Origin: an uncultured Pseudomonadota bacterium
GTDB taxonomy: Bacteria; Pseudomonadota; Gammaproteobacteria; Burkholderiales; SG8-39
NCBI GenBank assembly: GCA_963817785.1
Contig: CAWFPL010000008.1
Span: 172,113-236,112 of the forward strand
Length of the DNA stretch: 64,000 nt
Reading direction: 5' to 3'
Made by a program: the position numbers and the translations under genes. The notes beneath the pieces were generated by a model that was not told the DNA's origin, searched no databases, and saw only the letters and a program-made list of their open reading frames with translations. Positions 15,416-33,160 of this stretch are shown piece after piece. Position 1 is the stretch's first letter. Each line of letters starts with the position of its first letter.

Positions 15416-15460
15416 GTTCGAGCCCTAGTCGGGGAGCCAACTGGATGCGAAACTGGGCAC
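15416..15460 (-). other. att junction of element A overlapping integrase 3' end; outer half resembles a tRNA-Asn 3' end
   Basis: GTTCGAGCCCTAGTCGGGGAGCCA followed by arm GCGAAACTGGGCAC. Confidence 0.75.
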
Positions 15461-17014
15461 GCCCGCCAGCGTGCCCGGTTTCTTTGCCGCCACCGCGTGC
15501 GCAAGCGCCGCATAGCTCCCGCGCATCTCAAGCTGCCGGTCCACGACGCGGATTTCGGACACCAGCAGCCGCAGGTATTGCTTGGCAAAGGGACGGTTCG
15601 CGCCGAGCCTCGATTTGAGAGCGCGCCCGAAGGCCTCGACCTGGCTCGCCTTGAGCGCCCTCAGAGGCGTTTCCGCCTGGCGCTTGAGTCCCGCGATCTC
15701 AAGCAGCACCTCCTGCCGCCTCGCCTGCAGCTTGTGCGCGCGTTCCTGAAGCGCCGCATCCAGGGGAAGGTGCCCCGACTCTACCGCCTCAAAGAGCCGC
15801 TCGCTGCGTGACTTCAGCTCGTTGAGTTCTTTGGCGAGTACCTTGAGCCGCGCGTCCTGCTCCGAATGCGTGTTCCGCATCCGCTCGCGCGCCCCGGCGA
15901 TCATGGACTTCAGCCGCTGCGGCGTGAACACCTTTTCGGCCAGGGCCTTGAGCACCAGCTCGTCGAGCTTCTCCATCGGGATGTTGCCGCTCAGGCAGCG
16001 CGTATTGCCCTTCGCAATGCGCGTCTGGCATTTGTAGTAGCGATACCGTCCGCCTTTGCCGGTCGCAAGCGTCATCCCGGCCCCGCAATGCCCGCACTTG
16101 AGAAGGCCGGTAAGCAGCGTGGGCGAGTTCACCACCCGCGGCGGCACCTTGGCCGGGGCGCGCGCCGCACGCAGCGCCTGCGCCCGCCTGTAGGTGCCTG
16201 CGTCGATGATCGGCTCGACGGCCACCCGGACCCACTCCGTTTCGGCCTTCACCTCGCCCGTCTTGTTGCTCGTGCGGTTAAAAACGTACTCGCCGCAGTA
16301 GGCGCTATTGGCGAGGAGGTTATGCACCTTGCCACGCGTCCACTTCTGACCCCGCAGACTCACGCCCTGGTCATTGAGAATCGCCGCAATGCCCTTCTCC
16401 CCGAGCGACGCACCCTTGTGGCCGTCCAGGTACAGATCGAACACCTTGCACACGATGGCTGCCTCGGCGGGGTCGATCTCCAGGCGCTTCTTCTTGCCCT
16501 TGCGGCCCGTCGCCTCCGTCTCCACCGTCCTATAGCCAAAGGGCGGTCGAGAGCCGTTGAAATAGCCCTGCCGGGCGTTTTCCTTCATCGCCCGCAGCGT
16601 GTGCTTGCCGTTCTCCTTGCTCTGGTACTCGTCGAACAGGCTAAAGATCGTGCGGGCCATCTCGCCCGCCGGGTCGTCGCTCGTTTGCTGCGTGATCGAG
16701 ATGACCTTTACCCCAGCGCGCTTGAGCGTGCGTTCGTAGCTGAGGAATTGAAACAGATCCCGGAAGAACCGCGAGCGGCTATGAACGATGATCGCCTCGT
16801 AGGGAGACGGCTCTAGCGTCGCCTCCGCAATCATCTGCTGGAACACCGGCCGCCGGTCGTCAGTGGCCGAAGCCCCAAGCTCCACGTATTCCACGGCGAC
16901 CGCGAGGCCATGGCCCTTGCACCAGTCCCGCATCTGGCGGAGCTGGTCGGGGATCGAGAGATCCTTTTCAGCCTGCTTCGTCGTCGATACCCGAGCGTAC
17001 AGCGCGACGGCCAT
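15425..17014 (-). CDS. Large serine recombinase (integrase), copy A
   Basis: YARVST catalytic Ser, SRSRFFR, PPFGY recombinase domain, LLKCGHCG..YYKC zinc ribbon, coiled coil; RBS AAGGAAAGGA. Confidence 0.95.
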   Translation of the reverse strand: MAVALYARVSTTKQAEKDLSIPDQLRQMRDWCKGHGLAVAVEYVELGASATDDRRPVFQQMIAEATLEPSPYEAIIVHSRSRFFRDLFQFLSYERTLKRAGVKVISITQQTSDDPAGEMARTIFSLFDEYQSKENGKHTLRAMKENARQGYFNGSRPPFGYRTVETEATGRKGKKKRLEIDPAEAAIVCKVFDLYLDGHKGASLGEKGIAAILNDQGVSLRGQKWTRGKVHNLLANSAYCGEYVFNRTSNKTGEVKAETEWVRVAVEPIIDAGTYRRAQALRAARAPAKVPPRVVNSPTLLTGLLKCGHCGAGMTLATGKGGRYRYYKCQTRIAKGNTRCLSGNIPMEKLDELVLKALAEKVFTPQRLKSMIAGARERMRNTHSEQDARLKVLAKELNELKSRSERLFEAVESGHLPLDAALQERAHKLQARRQEVLLEIAGLKRQAETPLRALKASQVEAFGRALKSRLGANRPFAKQYLRLLVSEIRVVDRQLEMRGSYAALAHAVAAKKPGTLAGVPSFASSWLPD

Positions 17015-17171
17015 GTCCTTTCCTTTCCACTGTGTCCCCGCCAATCCGCAGCTCGGCGAGGAGTTCCGGCAACACGGAGTAAATCAAGACCAGTTCCGCC
17101 TCCGACACCTTCGATTCGTCGAACCCTTCCCGATACCGAATTGCGAGTTTATCGGAATCCGTAATGGGCAC
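16968..17171 (-). CDS. Small hypothetical protein overlapping integrase start (copy A)
   Basis: 67-aa ORF conserved in copy B; AAGGAGG upstream. Confidence 0.65.
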   Translation of the reverse strand: MPITDSDKLAIRYREGFDESKVSEAELVLIYSVLPELLAELRIGGDTVERKGHGRRAVRSGIDDEAG

Positions 17172-17177
17172 GCATGG

Positions 17178-17405
17178 TCAACCTCCTTTCTTTGCGGTGT
17201 GGGCCTGCCCGTGCCCTATCCTATCCTTGTGCTCTTCGCGAAACACCCGTTCCAACTCCGACTCCAAGCCGCTACGCCCGAACTCGTCCAGGACGAGCTT
17301 ACGAAACGCTGCGAACTGGCCGGGCGCAAGCGCCAGCTCGCCGAATTCCAGGATGCGCTTCATCCGCGGTTTGATGAGGCCGAGGAGCGTATCGAGATCG
17401 ATCAT
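17178..17405 (-). CDS. Small hypothetical protein (copy A)
   Basis: MIDLDTLL..., ATGA-coupled to rep stop, conserved in copy B. Confidence 0.7.
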   Translation of the reverse strand: MIDLDTLLGLIKPRMKRILEFGELALAPGQFAAFRKLVLDEFGRSGLESELERVFREEHKDRIGHGQAHTAKKGG

Positions 17406-18598
17406 TGGCCAAGCTGCACGCACTGGATGCGCTTTGTCACATCGAGCCGCCAGGTGAGCTCGTCGTGCACCCTGCACAGCAAGCGTTGCAGCTCGGTGAG
17501 GGCCTTGTCATGGGGCATGCTGACCTGCCTTCGCTGCACGCAGCGCAGCGCCGCGAGCTGCTTGAGGTATCCGTTCAAGCTCAGGCCAATGCGGGCGATG
17601 CGCTCCTCGATTTGCCGCATCGGGTCGATGGCGCGATAGACCCCTTCGGCCTTGAATCGCTCGATTTGCCCCTGAAGATCGCGCCACAGCGGATGCAACG
17701 GCCAGCGCGAGCGGTTGCGGTCGCGCGTGCGTTTGCGCAGCGTGTCGTGCTCCGCGGCGAGGTAGCGCAGCAGCTCGCCCGCCTGGGCGTTCAGCTCGGC
17801 ATAGGTACGGATCCCGAAGCGGCGCAGGACCTCTTTACGAACCTGCCATTCGATGCGCCAGACGTCGCGGTCCTCACCCCACAGCTCGAAGAGCCAGACC
17901 TTCTCGCTTTGCTCAAAGATCTCGGCCACCTTGTCGTAGACGCGCAGCACCACCTCGTCCCGGCCGAAGGTGAAGGTCTGAACCGTGCCGTTTGCACGAT
18001 GTTGACTATCTTTCGTCGCGAGGCTGACAAACGCGTCCTCGTCGAAGTCCACCACGGGGAGGTGGTAATCGAAACAGAAGTCCACCCGCGAAAGCGTTTC
18101 CGGCCTGACGGGGGCGAATCCAATCCCCGCGGCCCATGCGAGAAACCGCCGATGGAGCGCCTCGGCGGGCTCGCGCCAGAGCGCCTCGCTGCGGCAGGTG
18201 ACGTAAAACGAGGGGTTGTTGAATTCCCCCAACTCGATGCGATAGTCGGCGTTGCTGAGCACGAACGGATAGCCCGAGGCGCTGCCGTGCGGGGCGAGCA
18301 GGAACTCCATGTCGCCGAGCTGGATCGGCTGCGGCTCGGGGGTCCTTGCCTCGCGTAGGCTCTCCCGCTGCGCGCGAAGTTGCACGAAGTCGATTTGCGC
18401 TTGGCCCCGAGGCAGCAAGTAGTAGGCGCACTGGATCGTGTCGATCCCGTGCAGCAGCAACCGCGGAGCGGGCGCCTTCGCTCGCTTCGAGGGAACCGCA
18501 GCCGCCTTACTCGGTGTCGTCCTCGTCGTCTTCAAGGCCAATCCCTTCCTCGTCCAGAATCTCATCCACCCACGCCCGCACCTCGGTGCGCGATTCAT
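17402..18598 (-). CDS. Rep_trans/MOBT-like rolling-circle initiator or relaxase (copy A; start uncertain)
   Basis: LHGIDT, LSRVDFCFD, TFTFG, LRVYDKVAE (candidate catalytic Tyr), VWRIEWQVR. Confidence 0.78.
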   Translation of the reverse strand: MNRAPRCGRGWMRFWTRKGLALKTTRTTPSKAAAVPSKRAKAPAPRLLLHGIDTIQCAYYLLPRGQAQIDFVQLRAQRESLREARTPEPQPIQLGDMEFLLAPHGSASGYPFVLSNADYRIELGEFNNPSFYVTCRSEALWREPAEALHRRFLAWAAGIGFAPVRPETLSRVDFCFDYHLPVVDFDEDAFVSLATKDSQHRANGTVQTFTFGRDEVVLRVYDKVAEIFEQSEKVWLFELWGEDRDVWRIEWQVRKEVLRRFGIRTYAELNAQAGELLRYLAAEHDTLRKRTRDRNRSRWPLHPLWRDLQGQIERFKAEGVYRAIDPMRQIEERIARIGLSLNGYLKQLAALRCVQRRQVSMPHDKALTELQRLLCRVHDELTWRLDVTKRIQCVQLGQ

Positions 18599-19403
18599 CC
18601 CCGGTCAGCGCCTTGAGCTCCTCGGTCACCACCGATTCAATGCGCCAGCGCTCGGATAAGTCCAGGTCCTCGATCGCCTCCAGCTCCTGCTCGGCGTACT
18701 CCAGGCCGTAACGCTGCAGTGCCTGCTGTCGCTGCGTGCGGGCCGCGGTCGCGTTCTGGCGCGCGAGCGCTTCGCCGTGGAGCCGGTCCCGGACTCCTTC
18801 GGCGATCTGCACCAGCTCTGCCTGAGGTAGCTCTTCGATAGGCAACGGAGCGAGCGCACGCTCGATCGCCTGGAGGATCTGCGCCTTGAGTTCCGTACTC
18901 AGGCGGTAACTGGCGGGCCAACGCTCCACGACGGCCTGCTTGGTGTCCTGGATAATCTGACGGCGCTTGGCCTTGTGCCGCTCCTTGGCTTCCTCGGCCC
19001 GGCGGCGCGATTCCGCCTCCAGGGCAGCGCTCGCCCGGGCGGCCTCGCGCTCGCGCTCGGGGGCGGCCCGAGCCGCGGCCTCGCGCGCCTGCTGCTCGGC
19101 CGCTGCGCGACGGCTCGCGTTCTCGCGGGCGTCCAGCTCCCCGTGCGCCTGGCGGATCTCGCGCAGCGTCAGGCGAAGCTTCTCCGCCGACACCTGCTGG
19201 CGCATCTTGGTCACGGGGTCGAAGTCCTCGGCTGGCAGATCAAAGGACGCGCCCGCCGGGGACTGCGTAGGCATGCCGCCGGCTGCCTCAGGCAGGAGCG
19301 CTTGCCTAGGGGCTCTGCCTAGATAGGCAGCGCATGCCTTGAGGTGCGCGCGCACGCCTTGCCTGCTGCCGAATTCCTGTCCGCAGAAGCGGCATACCGC
19401 CAT
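18507..19403 (-). CDS. Hypothetical protein: N-terminal C2HC zinc finger, coiled coil, acidic tail (copy A)
   Basis: CRFC..F.S.QGVRAHLKAC; Ala/Glu/Arg-rich helix; conserved in copy B. Confidence 0.75.
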   Translation of the reverse strand: MAVCRFCGQEFGSRQGVRAHLKACAAYLGRAPRQALLPEAAGGMPTQSPAGASFDLPAEDFDPVTKMRQQVSAEKLRLTLREIRQAHGELDARENASRRAAAEQQAREAAARAAPEREREAARASAALEAESRRRAEEAKERHKAKRRQIIQDTKQAVVERWPASYRLSTELKAQILQAIERALAPLPIEELPQAELVQIAEGVRDRLHGEALARQNATAARTQRQQALQRYGLEYAEQELEAIEDLDLSERWRIESVVTEELKALTGDESRTEVRAWVDEILDEEGIGLEDDEDDTE

Positions 19404-19573
19404 GACCCATGCCCTCGAAGCTGAAGCGACCGCTTTCCCATTTCGAGAAAGCCGCCGGGGCGAGGCCCTATGGGCCCGCCCCGCGGCGCACCGCGTTCAG
19501 TTGTCCCGACTCAGTGCGGGTGGCTGCGGTGCAGCGCTGAATCTGCGGCGCTTCGGCGATGGCGTCAAAGCAA

Positions 19574-20455
19574 TTAACCTCCCTCTTGCACGGGGGGTTT
19601 GCTCCGGGGCGCGGGTTTTTCTACTGCGTCGAGCAGGGGTCGAAGATCGGCGTGGTGCCAGCCAGCTTGTCGCAGCGCGATGCGAAGCACCTCCTTGAAT
19701 GGGCCGCGGCGCAGCGATGACAAGCGCGCGCCGAATCCCGCTTTGGCGAGCTTGTGAAATTCGACGACGAAGCCCTGCGCGCGCGGGGTGCGCGGCCGCC
19801 CACCGCTAGAATTGCGTGACACCGGGATAGATGCGGCATACGACAGCAGGCTTTGAAGCTTCGGAAGATTCTTCTCGAATTGGCCAAGCGATTCCAGTGG
19901 GTCGGGATATCTGATTCTGATTCCATGCAAATGCGTTGGCCTGCTTTCCAGTACCGAGCTCCAGGCCGCGGATAGCCGCGTGTGGCCAGGGAAATATTCG
20001 CGAGCCTTTGCATAGGCGGCGATCAGCTCTTCCGCCTTCTTCTTGGCGCGCTCAAGATGCGTAATCGCCTCGCGCTCACTGCGCAGCGTGTCTCGATCTT
20101 GTAAGCGCAAGATCTGGTACGTGCCGATCAGACGCACCAGCTCATCGATGAAGGGTTCGCTATTTGCCGTGAGCTCCGATCTATCCAGCAATGCGGCAAT
20201 TTCCAGGCGAACCTGCGGCGGCATTTGGTAGCTGAGCCGCTGCACCCCGACGCCTGATAGTGCGCCAACGTAAGTGACTGAAGGCGTCTGTTCGGGCGGA
20301 TTTATCGAAGCAGCGGCAGGTGAGCTGTCGGATGAGAAATCCGGCATTGGACTGCCGGTCGCTGATGGTGTGGCACCGGACCTATCAGAAGGTCCTTTGA
20401 TGCGTGCTTGGGCAGCCCGCTTGACTCTCACCGGCTTCGACTTTCGCATGTGCAA
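19574..20455 (-). CDS. Hypothetical protein (copy A backbone)
   Basis: 293-aa ORF intact in both copies; GGRPR motif. Confidence 0.7.
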   Translation of the reverse strand: MHMRKSKPVRVKRAAQARIKGPSDRSGATPSATGSPMPDFSSDSSPAAASINPPEQTPSVTYVGALSGVGVQRLSYQMPPQVRLEIAALLDRSELTANSEPFIDELVRLIGTYQILRLQDRDTLRSEREAITHLERAKKKAEELIAAYAKAREYFPGHTRLSAAWSSVLESRPTHLHGIRIRYPDPLESLGQFEKNLPKLQSLLSYAASIPVSRNSSGGRPRTPRAQGFVVEFHKLAKAGFGARLSSLRRGPFKEVLRIALRQAGWHHADLRPLLDAVEKPAPRSKPPVQEGG

Positions 20456-20520
20456 AGCCCTCCCTTCGAGCCGCTAAACGCCGCAAGACCCTATCCCATG
20501 CCGCATGACGGCTGCCCTGG

Positions 20521-20654
20521 ACGGCGGCCCTTGACTGTGGGGCCCGGGCGCCTGTGTTGGCCGCTTGCGACCTTGCCGGGGTGCCCTGCGGGCACCCCGC
20601 GCAAGCTCGCTTGACGCTAACACAGGCGCCTACCCTCAGATCAAGGGCCGCCGT
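20521..20654. other. 134-nt imperfect hairpin, candidate single-strand origin (copy A)
   Basis: Nested stems ACGGCGGCCCTTGA/TCAAGGGCCGCCGT, GGCGCCTGTGTTGGC/GCTAACACAGGCGCC, CGGGGTGCCC/GGGCACCCCG. Confidence 0.6.
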
Positions 20655-20668
20655 AGAATGTATCCGTA

Positions 20669-20694
20669 GCCCCCCGTGTTACACGAACGGGGGC
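20669..20694 (-). other. Candidate nick site (dso/oriT), copy A
   Basis: GCCCCCGTTCGTGTAACACGGGGGGC: C-run, TAACA, G-run like Tn916/ICEBs1 MOBT oriT. Confidence 0.6.
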
Positions 20695-20715
20695 CAAACG
20701 CCGCAGACCAATCAT

Positions 20716-21513
20716 ATGACCGTGCTGATTATTGCTGTCCTCTGCGTGGTGATTGCATATGCGTTGCTGAAATATATGCTCTACGCCCGCCGATACTCGG
20801 CCGCACTCAACGTAGTGCTAGCAAAAGTTACATTCGAGCGACTGCTCCCGACCAAGCAGGCTGAGGTCAATTCGAAAGCACACGAGATCCTGGCCCGTCT
20901 AATGACGCGCCCCCCGGAGACCTTCGAGACAGAGGTACATCGCTTTGGTTGGTACGCCCTCGCAATGGCCGAGTTAGGAATTCAGCCTGCATTTGAGGAA
21001 CCGAGGTGGATCCTTATACCTAATCCCTTCCTCGCCGTTGTCCCTGGCGATCCAGCCTTTAAGAGAATTGTTAAATACTTGAAGCGCAAGTATGGCATCG
21101 ATATCCAATTGAAGAACGAGAAGTGCCCCGAGATTAAAGTCGAGGAGAAACCGAAACCGGCAGGGCCGAGAAACCGCACGTACTTGGACGAATTTAATGA
21201 GGTCGCCGGTAGCGTTATAGTGGGTGGTTACCGGACAATCGCATCGCGGCAAGGATGCGCCCCGTCGGCAAGAACAACGGATGAAAAGATCGTTCAAATT
21301 TACGTCCAGGTCGGCAGCGCATTTCAGGAGGCTGCCAAACAGCGTGGCGAGCACATTCCCGCACAAGTACTTAACTTCGTCGTGCTGCATTTCTTGCAGC
21401 TTTATGAAACGGCAGACGAGCAAATGTTTCATGAACACCTACGCTACGAGATCGCGAACTATCTGAAATCTGGGCTCCGCACTGACTACCAGCGTGAGCT
21501 TCCCTTGATTTAG
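20716..21513 (+). CDS. Cargo A1: membrane-anchored hypothetical protein
   Basis: N-terminal hydrophobic helix; visibly lower GC than backbone. Confidence 0.7.
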   Translation: MTVLIIAVLCVVIAYALLKYMLYARRYSAALNVVLAKVTFERLLPTKQAEVNSKAHEILARLMTRPPETFETEVHRFGWYALAMAELGIQPAFEEPRWILIPNPFLAVVPGDPAFKRIVKYLKRKYGIDIQLKNEKCPEIKVEEKPKPAGPRNRTYLDEFNEVAGSVIVGGYRTIASRQGCAPSARTTDEKIVQIYVQVGSAFQEAAKQRGEHIPAQVLNFVVLHFLQLYETADEQMFHEHLRYEIANYLKSGLRTDYQRELPLI

Positions 21514-21602
21514 ACGGCCGCATCGAGCGCAAATCGACCTTCGTCTACGCGACCGAGTTATCCGACCTTTGGCCCGGCTATTACACGCAGAGGGCTCTGA
21601 CA

Positions 21603-22022
21603 ATGGACGAGGAAGACTATACGCGGTTTAGCAAGTGGCAAGACGTCACCCGCGAACAACTCGGTGCAACGTCGAACCTCCTTCTCGGCCTTGCCACCGG
21701 CCTACTAGGTTTTACTACCGTGCTCCTTCTTGATCGCAGGCTAATCGTTTCATGCGCTTTCGGTTTCGGCGTTACAGCGTCGATCCTTCTCGCATTGTCA
21801 GTAGCCCTTGCACTCTGGTGCACAACAAATCGGCTCGCAGATTTCCGTCTAACGGCGAAAATCGCACATCCGAAGACTTGCAACAGTCAACGCGATGAGT
21901 TGCGGGAAGCATCAAAGCATCTCGGCGAGCGCACGTGGGGCATTTTCCGTGGTCAAGTATGGAGTTTCGCATTCGGTGCCGGCGCTATTGCCGTCGGTAT
22001 CATCATCCAGGTATTTTCGTAG
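21603..22022 (+). CDS. Cargo A2: small membrane protein with ~3 TM helices
   Basis: Three hydrophobic segments; ends just before att. Confidence 0.7.
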   Translation: MDEEDYTRFSKWQDVTREQLGATSNLLLGLATGLLGFTTVLLLDRRLIVSCAFGFGVTASILLALSVALALWCTTNRLADFRLTAKIAHPKTCNSQRDELREASKHLGERTWGIFRGQVWSFAFGAGAIAVGIIIQVFS

Positions 22023-22136
22023 CGATTATCACGGTAGCCCCCGACGCTTCGAGAGAGACGCCCTCCCAGCAGGCTTCGCTCGAGGGCTGGGCAATTCGCG
22101 AGAAATACGTTAGCTAACCGGCACCCGAACGATCCA

Positions 22137-22176
22137 GTGCCCACCTTCGCCCCGGTTGGGGAGCCAAGAATAGGGC
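22137..22176 (-). other. att junction, cargo end of element A
   Basis: Arm GTGCCCACCTTCGC + core GGGGAGCCA. Confidence 0.75.
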
Positions 22177-22462
22177 ATTTTTCACGTAAGTAGGCACTTC
22201 AAGCCGAAACCCTGTAGGCGCCATGAAGGCAATCGCGGCGCCCGACGCGCTGAACATCGCCCAAAGGTGGCACACGGGGCGTCTTTTCGCACAAGGCACG
22301 ATGTCGAACGACCCTGACGGAAGGGCCCCTCGAGGATCGTTCAGAAGCCGCCAGGAGCGACGCGCCCCCGGGCCGCTACCAAAGAGGAGACCGCACCGCG
22401 CACCGTAGCATCCAGCCTCCGCCTCGGGTACGCTCGCAGGCATCGCGGAAAAAGGACGGGGT

Positions 22463-22825
22463 ATGGACTCCATTGAGGCGCTCTGGTCGATCGTCTTTGC
22501 ATCGAACGTACAGCTGCTGCCCGGACAACCGTCGGCGGGCGGCGGCATCGTCGTGTTCGAGACCGGCCGCGTCTTCGGCGGGGATTCGACGATGATCTAC
22601 GTTGGTCGCTACCGCTTCCCGCCGGAGAGCAAGCACTTGGAGGCCGAGGTCGAGGTCAACAGGTTCCTCGCGGGAGGCGTCTCCGTATTCGGGGCCATCG
22701 ACCACTTCCACCTCAAGCTCACGGGGCAGTACCAGCGCGATCGCTTTGTGATGGAGGGGCACATGGTCGAGAACCCGGCGCAGCGGATCGCGATCGAGTT
22801 CGTGAGGCGCGCAGAGCTGCCGTAG
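22463..22825 (+). CDS. GrlR-family beta-barrel protein
   Basis: GGGIVVFETGRVFGGDSTMIYVGRY matches the GrlR-like G.G..v..G.i.GGD....Y.G pattern; AAGGA RBS. Confidence 0.6.
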   Translation: MDSIEALWSIVFASNVQLLPGQPSAGGGIVVFETGRVFGGDSTMIYVGRYRFPPESKHLEAEVEVNRFLAGGVSVFGAIDHFHLKLTGQYQRDRFVMEGHMVENPAQRIAIEFVRRAELP

Positions 22826-22836
22826 GTCGAGCCGCG

Positions 22837-23341
22837 ATGGAATCGCAGCACGCCAACCTGCCACCCGGGCGCCCGGCGCGCCGCGCAGGACGAAGGCGCT
22901 CGTGCGCGGGGGTCGCTGCAGCGATCGTGCTGGGCTTCTTGCCGCTGCTGGTCCGCGCGCAGCAAAGTGACGCAGCCTCGCGCCTCCATCATGCTCGAAC
23001 TCTGAAGTTGTCAATTTGGCACCGGAACCGTTACCCAATGGGAGAAAGGCAAGCCCACAGTCCGCAGCATGTCCGGGGACAGTGAAGCGGTGTTCGACGC
23101 AATTGACCTTAAGAAACACACGGCGCGCGTTATTGGCAGCGTCGGAGCCGACGATGTTGTGGCGTTGCCGACCTTGGTCGGGGTTTCTTTCATCGAGTCA
23201 GGCGCGGTCTTTTCTACGACGACTGTGTTCTCGACATCGGCAGGCGCCGACGCGTTCCTCGCGGTCGACAGCAGGCAAGATAAGTTCGCCGGCACGACTT
23301 TCGCCGAACAGTACCCCGGGATTTGCAGAATCTTGCAGTGA
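22837..23341 (+). pseudogene. Secreted hypothetical protein split by +1 frameshift near 23008
   Basis: Signal-like VAAAIVLGFLPLLVRA; removing one T joins to CQFGTGTVTQWEKGKP...YPGICRILQ. Confidence 0.55.
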
Positions 23342-23571
23342 GCCCGAGTCCATACGACACCCGCGACGCAACCGAGCACGCCCAGGTCGTCGCGCTCCTC
23401 GAGCGGCTCCCCGCCCAGCACCCGGCGCGCGCGGCCTACGCCCGTGGCACCGGCACGCTGGAGCTGACGCACCTGGTCGCCGATCGCTCCGAGCTGGTCG
23501 AGGAACTTAAGGAAGCGTGGCTCGCCGGCTACCGGCGGCTGCTTGCGCGGTCGAGCGGATTTAGGCCGTAG
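23338..23571 (+). CDS. Hypothetical protein (77 aa)
   Basis: GTGA overlap with upstream stop; GC-rich third positions. Confidence 0.5.
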   Translation: MSPSPYDTRDATEHAQVVALLERLPAQHPARAAYARGTGTLELTHLVADRSELVEELKEAWLAGYRRLLARSSGFRP

Positions 23572-24983: not shown

Positions 24984-25054
24984 CGGTTTGCGTGCTTCTG
25001 TCGTAGTCTAAGTTGAAGTAGCCGGCCTGCAGTCCAAGATCCAGCAAACCCACG

Positions 25055-25080
25055 GCCCCCGAGCGTGTAACACGGGGGGC
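25055..25080 (+). other. Candidate nick site (dso/oriT), copy B
   Basis: GCCCCCGAGCGTGTAACACGGGGGGC. Confidence 0.6.
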
Positions 25081-25094
25081 TTCGGATACATTGT

Positions 25095-25228
25095 ACGGCG
25101 GCCCTTGATCTGAGGGTAGGCGCCTGTGTTAGCGTCCAGCGAGCTTGGGCGGGGTGCCCGCAGGGCACCCCGGCAAGGTCGCAAGCGGCCAACACAGGCG
25201 CCCGGGCCCCACAGTCAAGGGCCGCCGT
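25095..25228. other. 134-nt imperfect hairpin, copy B
   Basis: Homolog of 20521-20654. Confidence 0.6.
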
Positions 25229-25293
25229 CCAAGGCAGCCGTCATGCGGCATGGGATAGGTTCTTGCGGCGTTTAGCGGCTCGAAGGGAGGGCT

Positions 25294-26178
25294 TTGCACA
25301 TGCGAAAGTCGAAGCCGGTGAGAGTCAAGCGGGCCGCTCAAGCACGCGTCAAAGGACCTTCTGATAGGTCCGGTGCCACACCATCAGCTACCGGCAGTCC
25401 AATGCCGGATTTCTCATCCGACAGCTCACTTGCCGCCGCTTCGATAAATCCGGCCGCACAGACGCCTTCAATCACTTACGTTGGCGCGTTGTCGGGCGTC
25501 GGCATGCAGCCGCTCAGCTACCAAATGCCGCCGCAGGTCCGTCTGGAAATTACCGCATTGCTGGATAAACTGAAGCTCACGGCAAATAACGAATCCTTCA
25601 TCGATGAGTTGGCGCGCCTGATCGGCACGTACCGGATCTTACACTCACAAGATCGAGACACGTTGCGCAGTGAGCGCGAGGCAATTACGCATCTTGAGCG
25701 CGCCAACAAGAAGGCGGAAGAACTCATTGCTGCCTACGTAGAGGCTTGCAAGTATTTCCCCGGCCACACGCGGCTGTCCGCAGCCTGGAGCTGGCTACTG
25801 GCAAGCAGGCCAACGCATTTGTATGGGATTCCAATCAAGTATCCCGATACGCCTTCGGAGTCACTTGGCCACTTCGAGAAGAATCTTCCGAAGCTTCAAA
25901 GCCTGCTGTCGTGCGCTGCATCCATGCCGATTTCTCGCAGTTCTACGGGCGGCCGACCGCGCAACCCGCGTGCGCAAGGCTTCGTCGTTGAATTTCGCAA
26001 GGTCGCTACAGAGAGATTCGGTGCGCGCTTGCCATCGCTTCGCCGCGGCCCATTCAAGGAGGTGCTCCGCATCGCGCTGCGAGAAGTTGGCTGGCACCAC
26101 GCCGATCTTCGGCCCCTCCTCGACGCAGTAGAAAAACCCGCGCCCCGGAGCAAACCCCCCGTGCAAGAGGGAGGTTAA
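25294..26178 (+). CDS. Hypothetical protein (copy B backbone)
   Basis: Homolog of 19574-20455. Confidence 0.7.
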   Translation: MHMRKSKPVRVKRAAQARVKGPSDRSGATPSATGSPMPDFSSDSSLAAASINPAAQTPSITYVGALSGVGMQPLSYQMPPQVRLEITALLDKLKLTANNESFIDELARLIGTYRILHSQDRDTLRSEREAITHLERANKKAEELIAAYVEACKYFPGHTRLSAAWSWLLASRPTHLYGIPIKYPDTPSESLGHFEKNLPKLQSLLSCAASMPISRSSTGGRPRNPRAQGFVVEFRKVATERFGARLPSLRRGPFKEVLRIALREVGWHHADLRPLLDAVEKPAPRSKPPVQEGG

Positions 26179-26348
26179 TTGCTTTGACGCCATCGCCGAA
26201 GCGCCGCAGATTCAGCGCTGCACCGCAGCCACCCGCACTGAGTCGGGACAACTGAACGCGGTGCGCCGCGGGGCGGGCCCAGAGGGCCTCGCCCCGGCGG
26301 CTTTCTCGAAACGGAAGGGCGTCGGTTGCAACGTCGAGGGCATGGATC

Positions 26349-27245
26349 ATGGCGGTATGCCGCTTCTGCGAAAAGGAATTTGGTAGCAGGCAGGCGGTGC
26401 GCGCGCACCTCAAGGCATGCGCTGCCTATCTAGGCAGATTCACAAGGCAGGCGGCGTTGCCTGAGGCAGCCGGCGCCATGCCTACGCAGTCTCCGGCGGT
26501 CGCGTCCTTTGATCTGCCCGCCGAGGACTTCGACCCCGTGACCAAGATGCGCCAGCAGGTGTCGGCGGAGAAGCTTCGTTTGACGCTGCGGGAGATCCGC
26601 CAAGCGCACGGGGAGCTGGACGCCAAGGAGCAGGCGAGCCGTCGCGCCGCGGCCGAGCAGCAGGCGCGCGAGGCCGCGGCCCGGGCCGCCCCCGAGCGCG
26701 AGCGCGAGGCCGTCCGGGCGCGCGCTACCCTGGAGGCGGAATCGCGCCGCCGGGCCGAAGAAGCCAAGGAGCGGCACAAGGCCAAGCGCCGTCAGATTAT
26801 CCAGGACACCAAGCAGGCCGTCGTGGAGCGTTGGCCCGCCAGTTACCGCCTGAGTACGGAACTCAAGGCGCAGATCCTCCAGGCGATCGAGCGTGCGCTC
26901 GCTCCGTTGCCTATCGAAGAGCTACCTCAGGCAGAGCTGGTGCAGATCGCCGAAGGGGTCCGGGATCGGCTCCACGGGGAAGCGCTCGCCCGTCAGAGCG
27001 CGTTGGAGGCCCGCACGCAGCGACAGCAGGCACTGCAGCGTTACGGCCTGGAGTACGCCGAGCAGGAGCTGGAGGCGATCGAGGACCTGGACTTATCCGA
27101 GCGCTGGCGCATTGAATCGGTGGTGACCGAGGAGTTCAAGGCGCTGACCGGGGATGAATTGCGCGCCCAGGTGCGGGCGTGGGTGGATGACATTCTGGAC
27201 GAGGAAGGGATCGGCCTTGAAGACGACGAGGACGACACCGAGTAA
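26349..27245 (+). CDS. Zinc-finger/coiled-coil hypothetical protein (copy B)
   Basis: Homolog of 18507-19403. Confidence 0.75.
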   Translation: MAVCRFCEKEFGSRQAVRAHLKACAAYLGRFTRQAALPEAAGAMPTQSPAVASFDLPAEDFDPVTKMRQQVSAEKLRLTLREIRQAHGELDAKEQASRRAAAEQQAREAAARAAPEREREAVRARATLEAESRRRAEEAKERHKAKRRQIIQDTKQAVVERWPASYRLSTELKAQILQAIERALAPLPIEELPQAELVQIAEGVRDRLHGEALARQSALEARTQRQQALQRYGLEYAEQELEAIEDLDLSERWRIESVVTEEFKALTGDELRAQVRAWVDDILDEEGIGLEDDEDDTE

Positions 27246-27884
27246 GGCGGCTGCGGGTCCCTCGAAGCGAGCGAAGGCGCCCGCTCCGCGGTTGCTGCTG
27301 CACGGAATCGACACGATCCAGTGCGCCTACTACTTGCTGCCTCGGGGCCAAGCGCAAATCGACTTCGTGCAACTGCGCGCGCAGCGGGAGAGCCTACGCG
27401 AGGTGAGGACCCCCGAGCCGCAGCCGATCCAGCTCGGTGACATGGAGTTTCTGCTCGCCCCGCACGGCAGCGCCTCGGGCTACCCGTTCGTGCTCAGTAA
27501 CGCCGACTATCGCATCGAGTTCGGGGAATTCAACAACCCCTCGTTTTACGTCACCTACCGCAGCGAGGCGCTCTGGCGCGAGCCCGCCGAGGTGCGGATT
27601 TCAGCGATCGCGGACGCTGATTTCAGCGTGATCGCGGACGGTGTTTCATCGTGATCGTGGACGATCAACGGGCCGCGGGAGTGACGGGGTTTATCTTATC
27701 GTAATCGTCCACGATCAGGTTGAAACGCAGCTCGGTGCCGATGCGCCGAAGGCGGTTCGGTGCTCGTGTCGCGGGGCGCAGGCTTGTCCACGGCGGCGGG
27801 CGGCGCCTGCGACGCACGAACGCCGCGGTGGGCAAGCCGTGTGGAGGAGCATGACGTTGGTGCTCGCCGGATTGCGCGAAGCGC

Positions 27885-28625
27885 TCATGCTTTGCCCTCG
27901 TGTTCGCGCATCGACTTGTTGCCCTTCAATGCGATGCGGTGCGCGGCGTGCACGATGCGATCGAGGATGGCGTCGGCCAGCGTCGGGTCGTCGAGCCAGG
28001 CGTGCCAGGAATTGACGGGCAACTGGCTCGTGATGAGCGACGAGCGCGAGCCGACGCGATCGTCGAGGAGCTCGAGCAGGTCGTTGCGCTCGCCCGGGCC
28101 GATCGGGGCGATAGCGAAGTCGTCCAGCGCGAGCAGGTCGATGCGGGCGAGCTGCGCCAGGCGCCGGCCGAAGCTGCCGTCGCCGTGGGCGACGCGCAAC
28201 TCCTCGAGCAGCCGCGGGGCGCGAGCGTAGAGCACGGTGAAGCCCAGGCGGGCTGCCTGCTGAGCGAGCGCGCACGCCAACCAAGTCTTGCCCGTACCGG
28301 TGGCACCGGTGATCAGGACGTTGCGGCCGTGGCGCAGCCAGTCGCCGCCGGCGAGCGCGCTGATCAGCGCCCGATCCAGGCCGCGTGAGACTCGCCAGTC
28401 GATGTCCTCGATGCAAGCGCTCGAGACCTTCAGGCGCGCAGCCTTCAGAAGTCTGGTGAGGCGCTTGGCGTCGCGCCAGTCGAGCTCGCGCTGCACGAGG
28501 AGTGCCAGGCGTTCCTCGAACGGCAGCGCCGCGGCTGCGCTCGTGCTCGCCGGGTCCTCGAGCGCGTGCACGATGCCGTCCAGGCGCAGGCTGCGAAGTT
28601 GTTCCAAGGTGTGTTCGTTAAGCAA
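27885..28625 (-). CDS. istB: IS21 helper ATPase
   Basis: GATGTGKT Walker A, LLALDDF, ITSQLP, DAILDR. Confidence 0.93.
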   Translation of the reverse strand: MLNEHTLEQLRSLRLDGIVHALEDPASTSAAAALPFEERLALLVQRELDWRDAKRLTRLLKAARLKVSSACIEDIDWRVSRGLDRALISALAGGDWLRHGRNVLITGATGTGKTWLACALAQQAARLGFTVLYARAPRLLEELRVAHGDGSFGRRLAQLARIDLLALDDFAIAPIGPGERNDLLELLDDRVGSRSSLITSQLPVNSWHAWLDDPTLADAILDRIVHAAHRIALKGNKSMREHEGKA

Positions 28626-28644
28626 GGTAGGTCTCCTTCGTGGG

Positions 28645-30198
28645 TCAGTGGTAGTACTCGGGGCCGCGCACGTTCTCGTGCAGCGGCAGGGTCTTCTGGG
28701 CGGGGGCCTCGGCGCTGGCGCTCTGTCGATCCAGGCCGGCGGCCAGGATCGAGGCGACGCTGCGGTAGGTGGGCGAGCCGATCGCCAGTGCTCGCGCGCA
28801 GGCGGCTTCCAGCCGTTCGGGGCCGAGCTGGCGCACCAGGCGCTTGAGGCCCAGGCACGCACGGTAGCCCTGCTCAGGATGCGGGCGGTGCTCCAGCTGC
28901 CAGCGCACGAGCGCCGCGCACTGCGCGCCGATGCGCTCGCCCCAGGCAATGAGCTTGGCCGGGGTCCACTCCAGGTGCGCGCGGTGCGAGGCCGGCATGT
29001 GCTCGGGCAGCGTCGTGTGCCTGCCCTGCAGGCGGCTATAGACGTGGCAGGCCACGCGGCTCTGGCCGAGGAACGCCTCGACCGTGGTGTCGGTCACGCG
29101 CACCTCGAGCTGGGCGTGCACCAGCCGATGCGGCACGCTGTAGAAGTGCCGATCGACCTCGAAGTGGTAGTCGATGTTCACGCGTGCGCGCACGAAGCGC
29201 GCGATCACCATGCGCGTGGCCGGCAGCGGCTTGAGCGCCGCACGATCCAGCGCCTCGAAGGCGCTTCGCCGAGTCCCGGGCAGCTTCTTGAAGGGCCGCG
29301 CGTTCAACTGCACGAGCAGCTCGGCGATCGCCGCGTTCGCCTCGGCCAGGCTGAACAGGCGCCGGTGGCGCAGGCGCGCGAGGATCCAGCGCTCGACCAC
29401 TTGCACGCCCACCTCGACCTTGGGCTTGTCGCGGGGATGCGCGGGCCGCGCCGGAAGCACGACCGTCGCGTAGTGGGCGCAGAACTCCTCGACCAGCCGG
29501 CTCGAGGTCGGCTCGTAGCGGTCGGGGTGCGCAATGAGCGCGCGCGTCTGGTCGGGCACGATCAGCCGCGTCACGCCGCCGATGAACTCCAGCGCCGCAA
29601 TCAGTGCCCCGATCCAGTCGGCCGCCGTCTGCGTGGCGGTGGCACACGCGTAGGTGAAGTTCGACGCCCCCAGCACCGCGACGAACACCTGCGCGGGCCG
29701 GATCTCGCCGGTGTCGGCGTCGATGATCGGAAGCGTCTGGCCAGCGTAGTCGACGAACAACCGCTCGCCGGCGGGGTGGGTCTGGCGCATCGAGCGCTTC
29801 AGGCGCGCCGCCCAGGCGCGATACTTCACGCAGAAGCTCGTGTACTTGTAGGCCGATTCGCCCGCCTGGGCGTGCGCGCGCTGGTACTCCTCCCAGAGCA
29901 GCTGCAGCGTCACCCCGGGGCGCTTGAGCTCCTGGTGGATGAGGGCGTAGTCGGGCTCGAGCTGGTGGCTGGAGCGCGCGACCGGCGCTCGGTAGAGCCG
30001 GTGCTCGAGCTCCTCGTCCGAGAGCGTCTGGGCCAGCGCCCAGTCCACGCCAGCGGCGCGCGCGAGCAGCACGATCTTGCCCACCGTGGCCTTGGCCATC
30101 GGGATGGCGCGGGCCACTTGGGCGTAGCTCAGGCCTGCTTCGAGGTGCAGGCGAAGGGTCTGTCGAATCTGGCGCATCGTGATCCTGGGTGTGGGCAT
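28645..30198 (-). CDS. istA: IS21 transposase
   Basis: GERLFVDYAG, IVPD, PRDKPKVE, FYSVP motifs. Confidence 0.93.
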   Translation of the reverse strand: MPTPRITMRQIRQTLRLHLEAGLSYAQVARAIPMAKATVGKIVLLARAAGVDWALAQTLSDEELEHRLYRAPVARSSHQLEPDYALIHQELKRPGVTLQLLWEEYQRAHAQAGESAYKYTSFCVKYRAWAARLKRSMRQTHPAGERLFVDYAGQTLPIIDADTGEIRPAQVFVAVLGASNFTYACATATQTAADWIGALIAALEFIGGVTRLIVPDQTRALIAHPDRYEPTSSRLVEEFCAHYATVVLPARPAHPRDKPKVEVGVQVVERWILARLRHRRLFSLAEANAAIAELLVQLNARPFKKLPGTRRSAFEALDRAALKPLPATRMVIARFVRARVNIDYHFEVDRHFYSVPHRLVHAQLEVRVTDTTVEAFLGQSRVACHVYSRLQGRHTTLPEHMPASHRAHLEWTPAKLIAWGERIGAQCAALVRWQLEHRPHPEQGYRACLGLKRLVRQLGPERLEAACARALAIGSPTYRSVASILAAGLDRQSASAEAPAQKTLPLHENVRGPEYYH

Positions 30199-30258
30199 GA
30201 CCGTCCGAAAAAATCGGCCAGCATGCCTGACAGTCAGGTCACTCGCGCGCCCCGCGAT

Positions 30259-30370
30259 CGTCCACGATCAGCTTGAAACGCCGTCCACGATCAGTCTGAA
30301 ACGGCGTCTACGATCAGCCTGAATTGCCGTCTACGATCCTCTGAAATGACCGTCTACGATGGGCTGAAAT
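30259..30370. repeat. Five ~23-bp tandem IS21 subterminal repeats
   Basis: CGTC(C/T)ACGAT....TGAA repeated five times. Confidence 0.8.
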
Positions 30371-31135
30371 ACGCACCGAGGCGCTCCATCGGCGGTTTCT
30401 CGCATGGGCCGCGGGGATTGGGTTCGCCCCCGTCAGGCCGGAAACGCTTTCGCGGGTGGACTTCTGTTTCGATTACCACCTCCCCGTGGTGGACTTCGAC
30501 GAGGACGCATTCGTGAGCCTCGCGACGAAAGATAGTCAACATCGTGCAAACGGCGCGGTTCAGACCTTCACTTTCGGCCGGGACGAGGTGGTGCTGCGCG
30601 TCTATGACAAGGTGGCCGAGATCTTTGAGCAAAGCGAGAAGGTCTGGCTCTTCGACCTGTGGGGTGAGGACCGCGACGTCTGGCGCATCGAATGGCAGGT
30701 TCGCAAGAACGCTCTGCGCCGCTTCGGCATTCGCACCTATGCCGAGCTGAACGCCCAGGCGGGGGAGCTGCTGCGCTACCTTGCGACCGAGCATGACACG
30801 CTGCGCAAGAGGACACGGGACCGCAACCGCTCGCGCTGGCTGCTGCATCCGCTGTGGCGCGATCTTCACGCGCAAATCGAGCGATTCAATGCCGAAGGGA
30901 TCGTTCGGGTCATCGATCCGATGCGCCAAATCGAGGAGCGCATCGCCCGCATCGGCCTCGCCTTGAACGGATACCTCAAGCAGCTTGCGGCGCTGCGCTG
31001 CGTGCAGCGAAGGCAGGACAGCATGCCCCATGACAAGGTCCTCACCGAGCTGCAACGGTTGCTGTGCAGGGTGCATGACGAGTTCACCTGGCGGCTCGAT
31101 GTGACAAAGCGCATCAAGTTCGTACGGCTTGGCCA

Positions 31136-31324
31136 ATGATTGATCTCGATACGCTCCTCGGTCTCATCAAACCGCGGATGAAGCGCATTCTGGAATTCGG
31201 CGAGCTGGCGCTTGCGCCCGGCCAGTTCGCAGCGTTTCGTAAGCTTGTCCTGGACGAGTTCGGGCGCAGCGGCTTGGAGTCGGAGCTGGAACGGGTGTTT
31301 CGCGAAGAGCACAAGGATAGGTAG
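31136..31324 (+). CDS. Small hypothetical protein (copy B; shorter than A by a 1-nt indel)
   Basis: Homolog of 17178-17405. Confidence 0.65.
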   Translation: MIDLDTLLGLIKPRMKRILEFGELALAPGQFAAFRKLVLDEFGRSGLESELERVFREEHKDR

Positions 31325-31368
31325 GGCACGGGCAGGCCCACACCGCAAAGAAAGGAGGTTGACCATGC

Positions 31369-31572
31369 GTGCCCATTACGGATTCCGATAGACTTGCCAT
31401 TGAGTATCGGGAAGGTTTCGATGAATCGAAGGCTTCGGCGGCGGAACTGGTCTTGATTAACTCCGTGCTGCCGGAACTCCTCGCCGAGCTGCGGATTGGC
31501 GGGGAAACACTGGAAAGGAAAGGACATGGCCGTCGCGCTGTACGCTCGGGTATCGACGACAAAGCAGGCTGA
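31369..31572 (+). CDS. Small hypothetical protein overlapping integrase start (copy B)
   Basis: Homolog of 16968-17171. Confidence 0.65.
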   Translation: MPITDSDRLAIEYREGFDESKASAAELVLINSVLPELLAELRIGGETLERKGHGRRAVRSGIDDKAG

Positions 31573-33160
31573 AAAGGATCTCTCGATCCCCGACCAGCTC
31601 CGCCAGATGCGGGACTGGTGCAAGGGCCAGGGCCTTGCGGTCGCCGTGGAATACGTGGAGCTTGGGGCTTCGGCCACCGACGACCGGCGGCCGGTGTTCC
31701 AGCAGATGATTGCGGAGGCGACGCTAGAGCCGTCTCCCTACGAGGCGATCATCGTTCATAGCCGCTCGCGGTTCTTCCGGGATCTGTTTCAATTCCTCAG
31801 CTACGAACGCACGCTCAAGCGCGCTGGGGTAAAGGTCATCTCGATCACGCAGCAAACGAGCGACGACCCGGCGGGTGAGATGGCCCGCACGATCTTTAGC
31901 CTGTTCGATGAGTACCAGAGCAAGGAGAACGGCAAGCACACGCTGCGGGCGATGAAGGAGAACGCCCGGCAAGGCTATTTCAACGGCTCTCGGCCGCCCT
32001 TTGGTTACAAGGCGGTCGAGACCGAAGCCACGGGCAGGAAGGGCAAGAAGAAGCGCTTGGAGATCGATCCCGCCGAGGCGGGAATCGTGCGCAAGGTGTT
32101 CGATCTGTACCTGGACGGCCACAAGGGCGCGCCGCTCGGGGAGAAGGGCATCGCGGCGATTCTCAATGACCAGGGCGTGAGCCTGCGGGCTCAGAAGTGG
32201 ACGCGCGGCAAGGTGCATAACCTGCTTGCCAATAGCGCCTACTGCGGCGAGTACGTCTTCAACCGCACGAGCAACAAGACGGGCGAGGTGAAGGCCGAAA
32301 CGGAATGGGTCCGGGTGGCCGTCGAGCCGATCATCGACGCAGACACCTACAGGCGGGCGCAGGCGCTGCGTGCGGCGCGCGCCCCGGCCGAGGTGCCGCC
32401 TCGGGTGGTGAACTCGCCCACGCTGCTAACGGGCCTTCTCAAGTGCGGGCATTGCGGGGCCGGGATGACGCTTGCCACGGGCAAAGGCGGGCGGTATCGC
32501 TACTACAAGTGCCAGACGCGCATTGCGAAGGGCAACACGCGCTGCCCGAGCGGCAACATCCCGATGGAGAAGCTCGACGAGCTGGTGCTCAAGGCCCTGG
32601 CCGAAAAGGTGTTCACGCCGCAGCGGCTGAAGTCCATGATCGCCGGGGCGCGCGAGCGCATGCGCCGTGCGCACACGGACCAGGATGCGCGGGTCAAGGT
32701 GCTGAGCAAGGAGCTGAACGAGCTGAAGGCGCGTAGCGACCGGCTCTTTGAGGCCGTGGAGTCGGGGCACCTTCCCCTGGATGCGACGCTTCAGGAACGC
32801 GCGCACAAGCTCCAGGCGAGGCGCCAGGCGCTGCTCCTTGACATCGCCGGGCTCAAGCGTCAGGCGGAAACCCCGTTAAGCGCGCTCAAAGCGAGCCAAG
32901 TGGAGACCTTCGGGCGCGCTCTCAAATCGAGGCTCGGCGCGAACCGTCCCTTTGCCAAGCAATACCTGCGGCTGCTGGTGTCCGAAATCCGAGTCGCGGA
33001 CCGGCAGCTTGAGATGCGCGGAAGCTATGCAGCGCTCGCGCACGCCGTGGCGGCGGGTCAACCGGGCACCCGCGAGGGCGTGCCCAGTTTTGCATCCAGT
33101 TGGCTCCACAACCATTGCAAATCTGGACATGGGCGGGTGGTGAGAATCGACTTGAGCTAA
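31526..33160 (+). CDS. Large serine recombinase (integrase), copy B
   Basis: Same motifs as copy A; diverges after SSWL at the att core. Confidence 0.95.
   Translation: MAVALYARVSTTKQAEKDLSIPDQLRQMRDWCKGQGLAVAVEYVELGASATDDRRPVFQQMIAEATLEPSPYEAIIVHSRSRFFRDLFQFLSYERTLKRAGVKVISITQQTSDDPAGEMARTIFSLFDEYQSKENGKHTLRAMKENARQGYFNGSRPPFGYKAVETEATGRKGKKKRLEIDPAEAGIVRKVFDLYLDGHKGAPLGEKGIAAILNDQGVSLRAQKWTRGKVHNLLANSAYCGEYVFNRTSNKTGEVKAETEWVRVAVEPIIDADTYRRAQALRAARAPAEVPPRVVNSPTLLTGLLKCGHCGAGMTLATGKGGRYRYYKCQTRIAKGNTRCPSGNIPMEKLDELVLKALAEKVFTPQRLKSMIAGARERMRRAHTDQDARVKVLSKELNELKARSDRLFEAVESGHLPLDATLQERAHKLQARRQALLLDIAGLKRQAETPLSALKASQVETFGRALKSRLGANRPFAKQYLRLLVSEIRVADRQLEMRGSYAALAHAVAAGQPGTREGVPSFASSWLHNHCKSGHGRVVRIDLS

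Follow-up and report, generated by a model that had tools for sequence, protein, structure and literature searches.

The 64,000-nucleotide (nt) stretch of DNA analyzed here, hereafter the window, covers positions 172,113 to 236,112 of contig CAWFPL010000008.1 (assembly GCA_963817785.1) from an uncultured bacterium of the Burkholderiales, whose genome comprises 8 contigs and 5.26 Mb at 64–68% guanine plus cytosine (GC). It carries two inverted copies of a small integrative element in which a large serine recombinase accompanies a Rep-like protein. Copy A lies at about 15437-22166 on the minus strand and copy B at 23643-33103 on the plus strand, in head-to-head orientation; the 1476 bp between their inner attachment (att) sites (22167-23642) are part of neither. 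Such an inverted pair had been proposed in a preliminary description made from the sequence alone. It is borne out by a repeat search, in which four collinear inverted arm pairs match A at 15428-20695 with B at 25054-27595 and 30376-33112, and by the 5.27-kb backbones, which are about 93% identical in a global alignment (375 of 5280 aligned columns differ; 13 are indel columns). Both copies share one gene order: large serine recombinase, two small open reading frames (ORFs), Rep-like ORF, an ORF of 298 amino acids (aa), one of 293 or 294 aa, a 134-nt hairpin and a small stem-loop. The preliminary description had given this order correctly for both copies, including its succession of att site, antisense cargo and nick motif.

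Because the substitutions that separate A from B are concentrated at third codon positions (19/14/77 at positions 1/2/3 in the recombinase, 11/15/44 in rep and 23/24/50 in the 293-aa ORF), these three genes are evidently coding and have been under selection since the copies split. The ORFs had been described as intact, but this is wrong for copy B. Its rep (27154-31139, plus strand) is split into a 5′ part at 27154-27592 and a 3′ part at 30376-31139 by a 2.8-kb IS21-family insertion on the minus strand (27593-30375). The insertion has inverted repeats at its ends, has duplicated 6 bp of its target (CCGAGG) and encodes istA (28645-30198) and istB (27885-28949); IstA has the rve and Mu-transpos_C_2 domains and IstB scores 229.6 bits. 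This set of features is typical of the family. Copy B is thus probably crippled. The view that the copies are independent family members gains support from their 7% divergence, their different flanks and their cargo, which is unrelated by blastn.

The Recombinase and Its Attachment Sites

The recombinase of A (539 aa; 15425-17044, minus strand) matches the Pfam families Resolvase (98.9 bits), Recombinase (62.6) and Zn_ribbon_recom (64.7) and the integrase family PHROG 95 (E 1e-106). All three domains, which together define a large serine recombinase, exceed the Pfam cut-offs in both copies, that of B being 554 aa long (31496-33160, plus strand).

Att sites had been expected at the outer ends and the center of the pair, and all four are present. 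The cores read TGGCTCCCCGAC at the outer end of A (15428-15439, minus strand), TGGCTCCCCAAC at its inner end (22155-22166, minus), TGGCTCCCCGAG at the inner end of B (23643-23654, plus) and TGGCTCCACAAC at attR of B (33101-33112, plus), a secondary site without a tRNA-like flank. The attR of A (15417-15439, plus) is a 3′ fragment of tRNA-Asn, TTCGAGCCCTAGTCGGGGAG followed by CCA, with the crossover inside TGGCTC of the minus strand; its 23 nt carry a single mismatch to the 3′ end of the genuine tRNA-Asn(GTT) gene, which lies on another contig of the genome (C6:159351-159426). The attL of A (22105-22166, minus) forms a P′ arm that starts with TGG and CTCCCCAAC, which imitates the acceptor end of the tRNA, and continues to TGGGCACTGG. 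That of B (23643-23702, plus) starts with TGG and CTCCCCGAG, also continues to TGGGCACTGG, and shares about 80% identity with the left end of a further copy (C4:145412-145475). In the reconstructed attP, the P arm (GTGCCCAG-N14-TGG) and the P′ arm place the inverted pair GTGCCCA/TGGGCAC on either side of TGGCTC, which fits the expectation for the attP of a serine integrase. As in the sites of other large serine recombinases, the inverted arms are imperfect, the crossover is short, and attL and attR share just 6–14 nt.

No tRNA gene lies within the window, whose element flanks hold fragments only; the outer flank of B is unrelated to tRNA-Asn, and the true tRNA-Asn site of this genome is unoccupied. 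Both copies sit in pseudo-sites resembling the tRNA-Asn end. The recombinase ORF itself crosses the crossover. In integrated A it ends WLPD*, with the stop codon inside the flanking tRNA fragment, and in integrated B it continues for 15 codons into host DNA that is not tRNA-like. In the excised form both tails are predicted to read into the P′ arm, where they are related (...GGHWIVRV... in A, read by hand, and ...TGHWVVRV... in B).

The Family and Its tRNA Target

Among 8000 scored candidates, 1234 proteins were related to Rep at E ≤ 0.001, most of them 55–60% identical and unnamed. The backbone of Rep, small ORF and large serine recombinase was found in 154 relatives in a set of one-per-species genomes and in 407 in metagenome contigs, and 80 loci of each group were analyzed (L-numbers denote individual loci; C4, C6 and C8 are contigs of the genome carrying the window). 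Rep is followed by the recombinase in 75 of the 80 genome loci. The carriers span Pseudomonadota, Desulfobacterota, Nitrospirota, Nitrospinota, Armatimonadota and other groups, mostly diderm phyla; named hosts include Burkholderiales, Nitrosomonas, Geobacter, Syntrophobacter, Nitrospira, Nitrospinota, Armatimonadota, Mariprofundus and one Patescibacteria bin. In 42 of the 60 loci that have both a whole recombinase and its flank, the end of the recombinase shares 2–11 nt with a convergent tRNA gene (30 Asn, 9 Arg and 3 Glu). In three more a tRNA gene lies 230–355 nt away, and many of the remainder show tRNA-like fragments.

The left end was originally set at the stem-loop, because the similarity of the A/B/C set ends there and a GG dinucleotide borders both junctions. 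This placement was rejected: an empty site in Dechloromonas and a scan for attL put the end 0.6–3.5 kb further left. In this genus, tRNA-Asn lies within about 300–900 nt of moaA in 14 of 29 loci, and the closest of these relatives (L199) has the moaA/tRNA-Asn site empty. Its sequence aligns with the occupied locus L066 until about position 6049 and resumes at 11166, which defines a 5.1-kb insert with TGGCTC at both junctions. The attL of L066 reads host...CATTTTTCTTT-TGG-CTCGCCGAC... and its attR ...GTGCCCAAATCTGTATTCGGT-TGG-CTCCCCGACC, the last segment belonging to the tRNA. The left arm of the insert copies the tRNA acceptor end, and between this arm and the stem-loop lie hicA and hicB, antisense to the backbone. 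The flank to the left of L066 had no counterpart in 60 family genomes; likewise, the central 4.4 kb of the window had none in 40 relatives, and an empty site for the window copies was not recovered from them.

A 14-mer repeat of the attR core occurs left of the stem-loop in 25 of 83 loci, where by our own arithmetic about one would be expected by chance, and in some 20 of these it is followed by ...ATCTGGGCACTGG. The repeat matches the type of the target tRNA, being CTCCCCGACC-like in the Asn elements and TGCGCCCGGAG- or CGCGCCCGAGA-like in the Arg elements. These comparisons show that the P′ arm carries an 11–14-nt copy of the acceptor end of its target tRNA that changes with the target (Asn, Arg).

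A metagenome assembled as contigs (run X8), in which depth and absence carry no weight, supplies evidence for copy A itself: its contigs depart from the window sequence exactly at the predicted edges, 15438 and 22166. The junction at 15438 therefore implies a population in which the site of A is not occupied in this way. Integration and excision by serine recombination, as previously proposed, are thus supported by the Dechloromonas empty site, the inverted att arms and these contig breaks. The contig with this junction, 284 nt long, joins window positions 15186-15438 directly to the flank of a left-arm-like site at C8:257239 (30/30 nt). That site lies 21 kb past the window end, and the 69.7 kb between it and the attR of A (15438), including most of the window, may form one composite island.

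The Rep-like Protein, the Stem-Loop and the Long Hairpin

The Rep-like protein of A (398 aa; 17402-18598, minus strand) belongs to a large set of sequences, its profile matching 3361 clusters at E ≤ 0.001 among 1.84 billion representatives. Among 35 family members, 14 match Rep_trans (best E 2.3e-5) and 4 match Phage_CRI, all weakly. The Rep of PDB entry 4cij is matched by the protein of A at E 0.049, and by the profile of the 35 relatives, as the sole solved protein, at E 0.13. For a Rep homologue stored in the ESM Atlas, all ten best matches that bear a family belong to Rep_trans or its clan (scores 0.95–0.98). Tyrosines Y59, Y221 and Y279 are invariant across the 35 sequences, and Y221 falls within R-x-Y-D-K-x-x-E, which we take to be akin to the motif of pT181 RepC. 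Two distant Rep paralogues in Geobacter sp. AOG1 (C1:2296070-2297110 and 2927030-2927860), with 28–30% identity and open frames of 436–437 aa, hint at sister families.

The stem-loop of A (20658-20695, minus strand) has the form CCCCCGT-N4-GTAAC-ACGGGGG followed by CTAnnnATACAT and marks the left limit of A/B similarity. The motif was found in 72 of the 80 genome loci, usually 330–700 nt upstream of rep. At each of 7 positions, the left arm, which was outside the search pattern, pairs with the right arm in 93–117 of 118 distinct instances. Next to it in A lies the 134-nt hairpin (20521-20654, minus), with a DNA folding energy of -80.6 kcal/mol (z -9.46; none of 200 shuffled sequences folds as well). 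Alignment with A maps the corresponding features of B to 25054-25091 and 25095-25228 (together 25054-25228, plus). Across the family, the 180-nt segment that follows the motif shows strong structure (z below -3) in 39 of 121 loci, against 3 of 95 control stretches. The stem-loop is a candidate for the Rep nick site, or double-strand origin, and the 134-nt hairpin a candidate single-strand origin.

Small and Accessory Genes

Two small ORFs separate rep from the recombinase. The first, orf99 (17178-17477 in A, minus strand), probably starts at Met25; it has a tblastn match directly 3′ of rep, between rep and the recombinase, in 68 of the 80 genome loci and is a candidate directionality or accessory factor. 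The second, of 67 aa (16968-17171, minus), is a weak gene call, with homologues by tblastn in a few loci only and substitutions (5/4/6 per codon position) that show no third-position excess. Their homologues in B occupy 31064-31569 (plus).

On the other side of rep, the 298-aa ORF of A (18507-19403, minus) encodes an N-terminal zinc finger (C-x2-C...H-x3-C) and a charged helix, and is followed by the 293-aa ORF (19574-20455, minus). The counterparts in B, of 298 and 294 aa (25294-27245, plus), are 93% and 85% identical, respectively. Homologues of the 298-aa protein occur in L117 (53% identical), L118, L119 and L132, and one of the 293-aa protein in L117 (35%); neither is present in the 80 genome loci, and both are accessory genes confined to a subfamily. 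The 293-aa, 298-aa and small ORFs had no family match in Pfam, PHROGs or NCBIfam. Across the family, ORFs of several unrelated types occupy the position immediately 5′ of Rep, some of them ribbon-helix-helix- or helix-turn-helix (HTH)-like. The preliminary description had seen no capsid, Zot, type IV secretion or coupling protein, and indeed no such family was found among the element ORFs by Pfam, PHROGs, NCBIfam or PADLOC. The element has an integrase and att sites of its own but lacks a conjugation apparatus, which is the composition of an integrative mobilizable element (IME).

The Cargo Slot and Its Exchange

The variable cargo slot that had been suspected is real: it lies between the left att arm and the stem-loop, and near-identical backbones carry different DNA there. 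In A (20696-22154, plus strand) two cargo ORFs run antisense to the backbone, at 20554-21513 (319 aa) and 21603-22022 (139 aa), neither with a family match, and the GC content drops to 0.53–0.59. The slot of B (23703-25053, minus) encodes a 253-aa protein (23795-24556) that combines two HTH domains of the Xre type with a GIY-YIG-like C-terminus, and contains a 116-aa ORF (24633-24983). HicA/HicB, Mrr and HTH proteins are among the cargo of other loci, and clustering of 680 ORFs left of the motif gave no family common to more than 4 loci.

The L016 and L022 backbones are 98.7% identical; their similarity ends 265 nt left of the motif, yet the attL of L016 lies 1205 nt left of it. L186 and L190 (98.1%) likewise have different DNA to their left. 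In independent sets (A/B/C, L025/L040, L129 with L140-142, L131/L170 and L060/L061/L066) similarity starts within about 20 nt of the left edge of the hairpin. The P arms of A and B are near-identical, with one mismatch across the last 25 nt, but their P′ arms, although homologous, are identical at only 43 of 60 nt (72%). The exchanged unit therefore comprises the P′ arm together with the cargo, bounded by the crossover and the origin. Such a swap could occur if Rep were to start at one origin and end at the next in a tandem array, which would give the observed break points. Two loci hold a pair of stem-loop motifs in direct order (L020 at 4735 and 7668; L028 at 7189 and 7587), the arrangement that exchange between tandem origins requires.

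Further Copies in the Same Genome

Two more relatives lie on C4. One is 91% identical and truncated in orf99; the other is a mosaic, since its Rep is 53% identical but the recombinase joined to it 88%. They form a composite at C4:145412-162690. Its first part consists of a left arm, 2.7 kb of cargo, the stem-loop, the 298-aa ORF and a Rep 93% identical, and is broken off within orf99; its second comprises some 8 kb, including a 1065-aa ORF, and then the 53% Rep and 88% recombinase, which abuts a 36-nt tRNA-Asn fragment. Four extra P′-arm-like sites (GGCTCCCC...TGGGCAC) occur on the minus strand of C8, at 482691, 257239, 1222583 and 150088. In the genome, A, B and the C4 copy were the sole matches to the P-arm (recombinase-end) pattern, and none of these pairs with the four extra sites. 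The flank GTTCGAGCCC-N5, common to the left arms of B, C4:145412, C8:482691 and C8:257239, repeats the tRNA T-arm in inverted form, so that the target looks palindromic.

Discussion

This family is real and widespread and, as far as our searches went, undescribed, and it is best seen as a variant of the integrative, helper-dependent rolling-circle elements. No description of it was found in the literature, although supplementary tables, which lay outside the search, might list such elements; the earlier suggestion of an undescribed family stands within the same bounds. We favor, with reasonable though far from complete confidence, a reading in which each copy is a member, about 6.7 kb long, of a family of small site-specific integrative elements that are excised as circles by their recombinase, copied as rolling circles by Rep and transferred by a helper. 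The layout of the family is a P′ arm, antisense cargo, the stem-loop with the long hairpin, one or more variable regulatory or accessory ORFs, Rep, a small ORF and the recombinase, whose last codons contain the P arm. In such a cycle the recombinase would excise the element as a circle, and Rep, a distant relative of Rep_trans and G2P, would nick the stem-loop and copy the circle by the rolling-circle route. The long hairpin would prime the second strand, and the single strand or the multimers would be carried to new cells by a helper encoded elsewhere.

Several results weigh against this reading. Rep of A scores 20.8 bits on Rep_trans (PF02486), below the cut-off of 29.6, which makes it a distant, sub-threshold relative. 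Rep has no PHROG match and none in NCBIfam at E ≤ 0.01, including the MobT model NF041493. An attempt to reach Rep_trans through intermediates failed, as a Bacillus "replication initiation factor" linked by BLAST has no Pfam match, and among ten full-length distant matches of the Rep profile nine have none and one a weak one. Rep therefore represents a divergent clade near Rep_trans/G2P rather than a member; by sequence comparison it would fall outside the family proper. The pairing of the stem-loop reflects conservation and not covariation, because its left arm hardly varies. Free circles, which had been expected, are not seen among the 80 metagenome contigs, none of which has a terminal overlap. 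The family has a single match in the 2.9 million viral contigs of IMG/VR and none, by protein search, in 50,697 phage records; plasmid records held no near-identical DNA. In the genome itself, the odd flank shared by several left arms means that rearrangements between copies have occurred, and the flanks of A and B do not match as simple halves of a single target. The rolling-circle step and the route from cell to cell are what we infer, since Rep is sub-threshold, its Rep_trans-like fold is putative and no circles were seen.

The same element might instead be an IME in which the chief role of Rep is that of a conjugative relaxase at an origin of transfer (the stem-loop) and which uses the type IV secretion system of a helper, in the manner of the MOBT/Rep_trans IMEs of streptococci. 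Such IMEs, with tyrosine or serine integrases, are documented, and MobT is both relaxase and replication initiator, according to the available text of PMC5704250. A locus on a Bacillus plasmid is arranged in parallel, with a Rep-like gene, an HTH_17 gene and a tyrosine integrase in that order, and the present element lacks transfer genes of its own. But the MobT model is unmatched, and in the few known mobilizations by these relaxases TcpA-type coupling proteins from Firmicute elements take part as well (PMC5704250, in the same text), whereas the hosts here are mostly diderm; no helper was found, and no search aimed at one was made. We regard this version as rather unlikely.

We also think it unlikely, if well worth weighing, that both copies are immobile, decayed relics whose inverted arrangement arose incidentally as old insertions recombined with one another. 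Decay is evident in the IS21 element that splits rep of B, in the truncated C4 copy and in the extra left arms without a recombinase, and the pseudo-sites of A and B with their ill-matched flanks point the same way. Copy A tells another story, as each of its ORFs is open and shows purifying selection relative to B, its att arms are intact, and the X8 contigs contain a junction without it.

The RS1 and TLC elements of Vibrio are satellites that depend on helper viruses. That the present family is a satellite of filamentous or other phages, its Rep making single-stranded circles and its long hairpin serving as a packaging signal, or a stripped-down phiRSM, is improbable: the weak matches of four family members to Phage_CRI, the G2P replication protein of filamentous phages, the position of the hairpin beside the origin, and the coupling in phiRSM of a serine recombinase with a 13-bp copy of the tRNA-Ser 3′ end (in the text available of PMC4471427) have to be set against the absence of Zot (PF05707) from all four carrier genomes searched, the near absence from viral records, and the lack of any coat or assembly gene in every locus examined.

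Returning to the helper-dependent rolling-circle element, a bolder form of it is doubtful. Here the elements would be self-contained "integrative rolling-circle replicons" spread across many phyla, in which the recombinase crossover and the Rep nick site jointly delimit an exchangeable cassette of P′ arm and cargo, with a switch in the recombinase tail and integrases that can be re-aimed. Excision would rewrite the C-terminal tail of the recombinase, which has one residue after WLP when A is integrated and would gain a conserved G-H-W-x-V-R-V when excised, possibly a built-in switch between integration and excision. If so, the recombinases would constitute a natural set of large serine integrases re-aimable at tRNA ends.

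Several known systems resemble the family in part, the closest being the Firmicute IMEs with Rep_trans relaxases and the phage phiRSM. In the Tn4451-type mobilizable transposons a large serine recombinase (TnpX) excises a circle that carries a mobilization protein and an oriT; they differ in their Mob/Pre relaxase, low target specificity and Firmicute host. These transposons also receive mention in PMC5704250. The streptococcal IMEs with MobT/Rep_trans relaxases (IMESag-rpsI, IME_Sga2069_rpmE) share the small size, a site-specific integrase, a Rep_trans-related initiator or relaxase, passenger genes such as toxin–antitoxin pairs, and the absence of a transfer apparatus. As far as the account in PMC5704250 goes, however, these Firmicute elements have a Rep that passes the Rep_trans model, and those with serine integrases insert within genes, not at tRNA ends. 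In our family, by contrast, most hosts are diderm, Rep is sub-threshold, the target is a tRNA 3′ end, and the stem-loop is near-invariant across phyla. phiRSM1 and phiRSM3 of Ralstonia share a serine recombinase, an attP that copies about 13 bp of a tRNA 3′ end, and a rolling-circle replicon, but their enzyme is of the small resolvase/invertase type and they encode a full virion and its assembly (PMC4471427, portion available), whereas the present elements have a large serine recombinase and no structural genes. The tycheposons of Prochlorococcus also target tRNA genes, combine small integration and replication modules with exchangeable cargo and include a minority with large serine recombinases; they differ in replicating by primases, helicases and polymerases instead of a Rep nickase, in being mostly 10–20 kb long with mostly tyrosine recombinases, and in protein family (bioRxiv 10.1101/2020.12.28.424599, in the text available). 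A term search of the main text of a large survey of serine integrases (PMC10083194) found no mention of tRNA.

Small helper-dependent elements are thought to make up a large and poorly charted share of bacterial mobile DNA. The present family is compact (about 4–7 kb), carries toxin–antitoxin, nuclease and regulator cargo, and has readily recognized cis elements, namely a single stem-loop and a pair of att arms, one of them mimicking the end of a tRNA. It makes testable the recognition of tRNA ends by a large serine integrase, replication or mobilization by a divergent Rep in diderms, and the exchange of cargo cassettes, and its integrases with their predicted att pairs are of potential interest to genome engineers.

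Neighboring Genes

Between the two elements, an 82-aa ORF (23323-23571, plus strand) has a high third-position GC content and copies 71–76% identical at four other places in the genome. Just outside A, a run of genes at 9532-15290 (plus) encodes radical SAM/B12-binding, ATP-grasp ligase and 2OG-Fe(II) oxygenase proteins and a 573-aa protein of the nitroreductase family, and may be a peptide-modification cluster. An IS200-type Y1 transposase lies just outside B (33455-33967, minus). Near the start of the window, a group II intron (126-1999, minus; Rfam RF02005, 189.9 bits, and RF00029) contains a 582-aa ORF at 204-1952.

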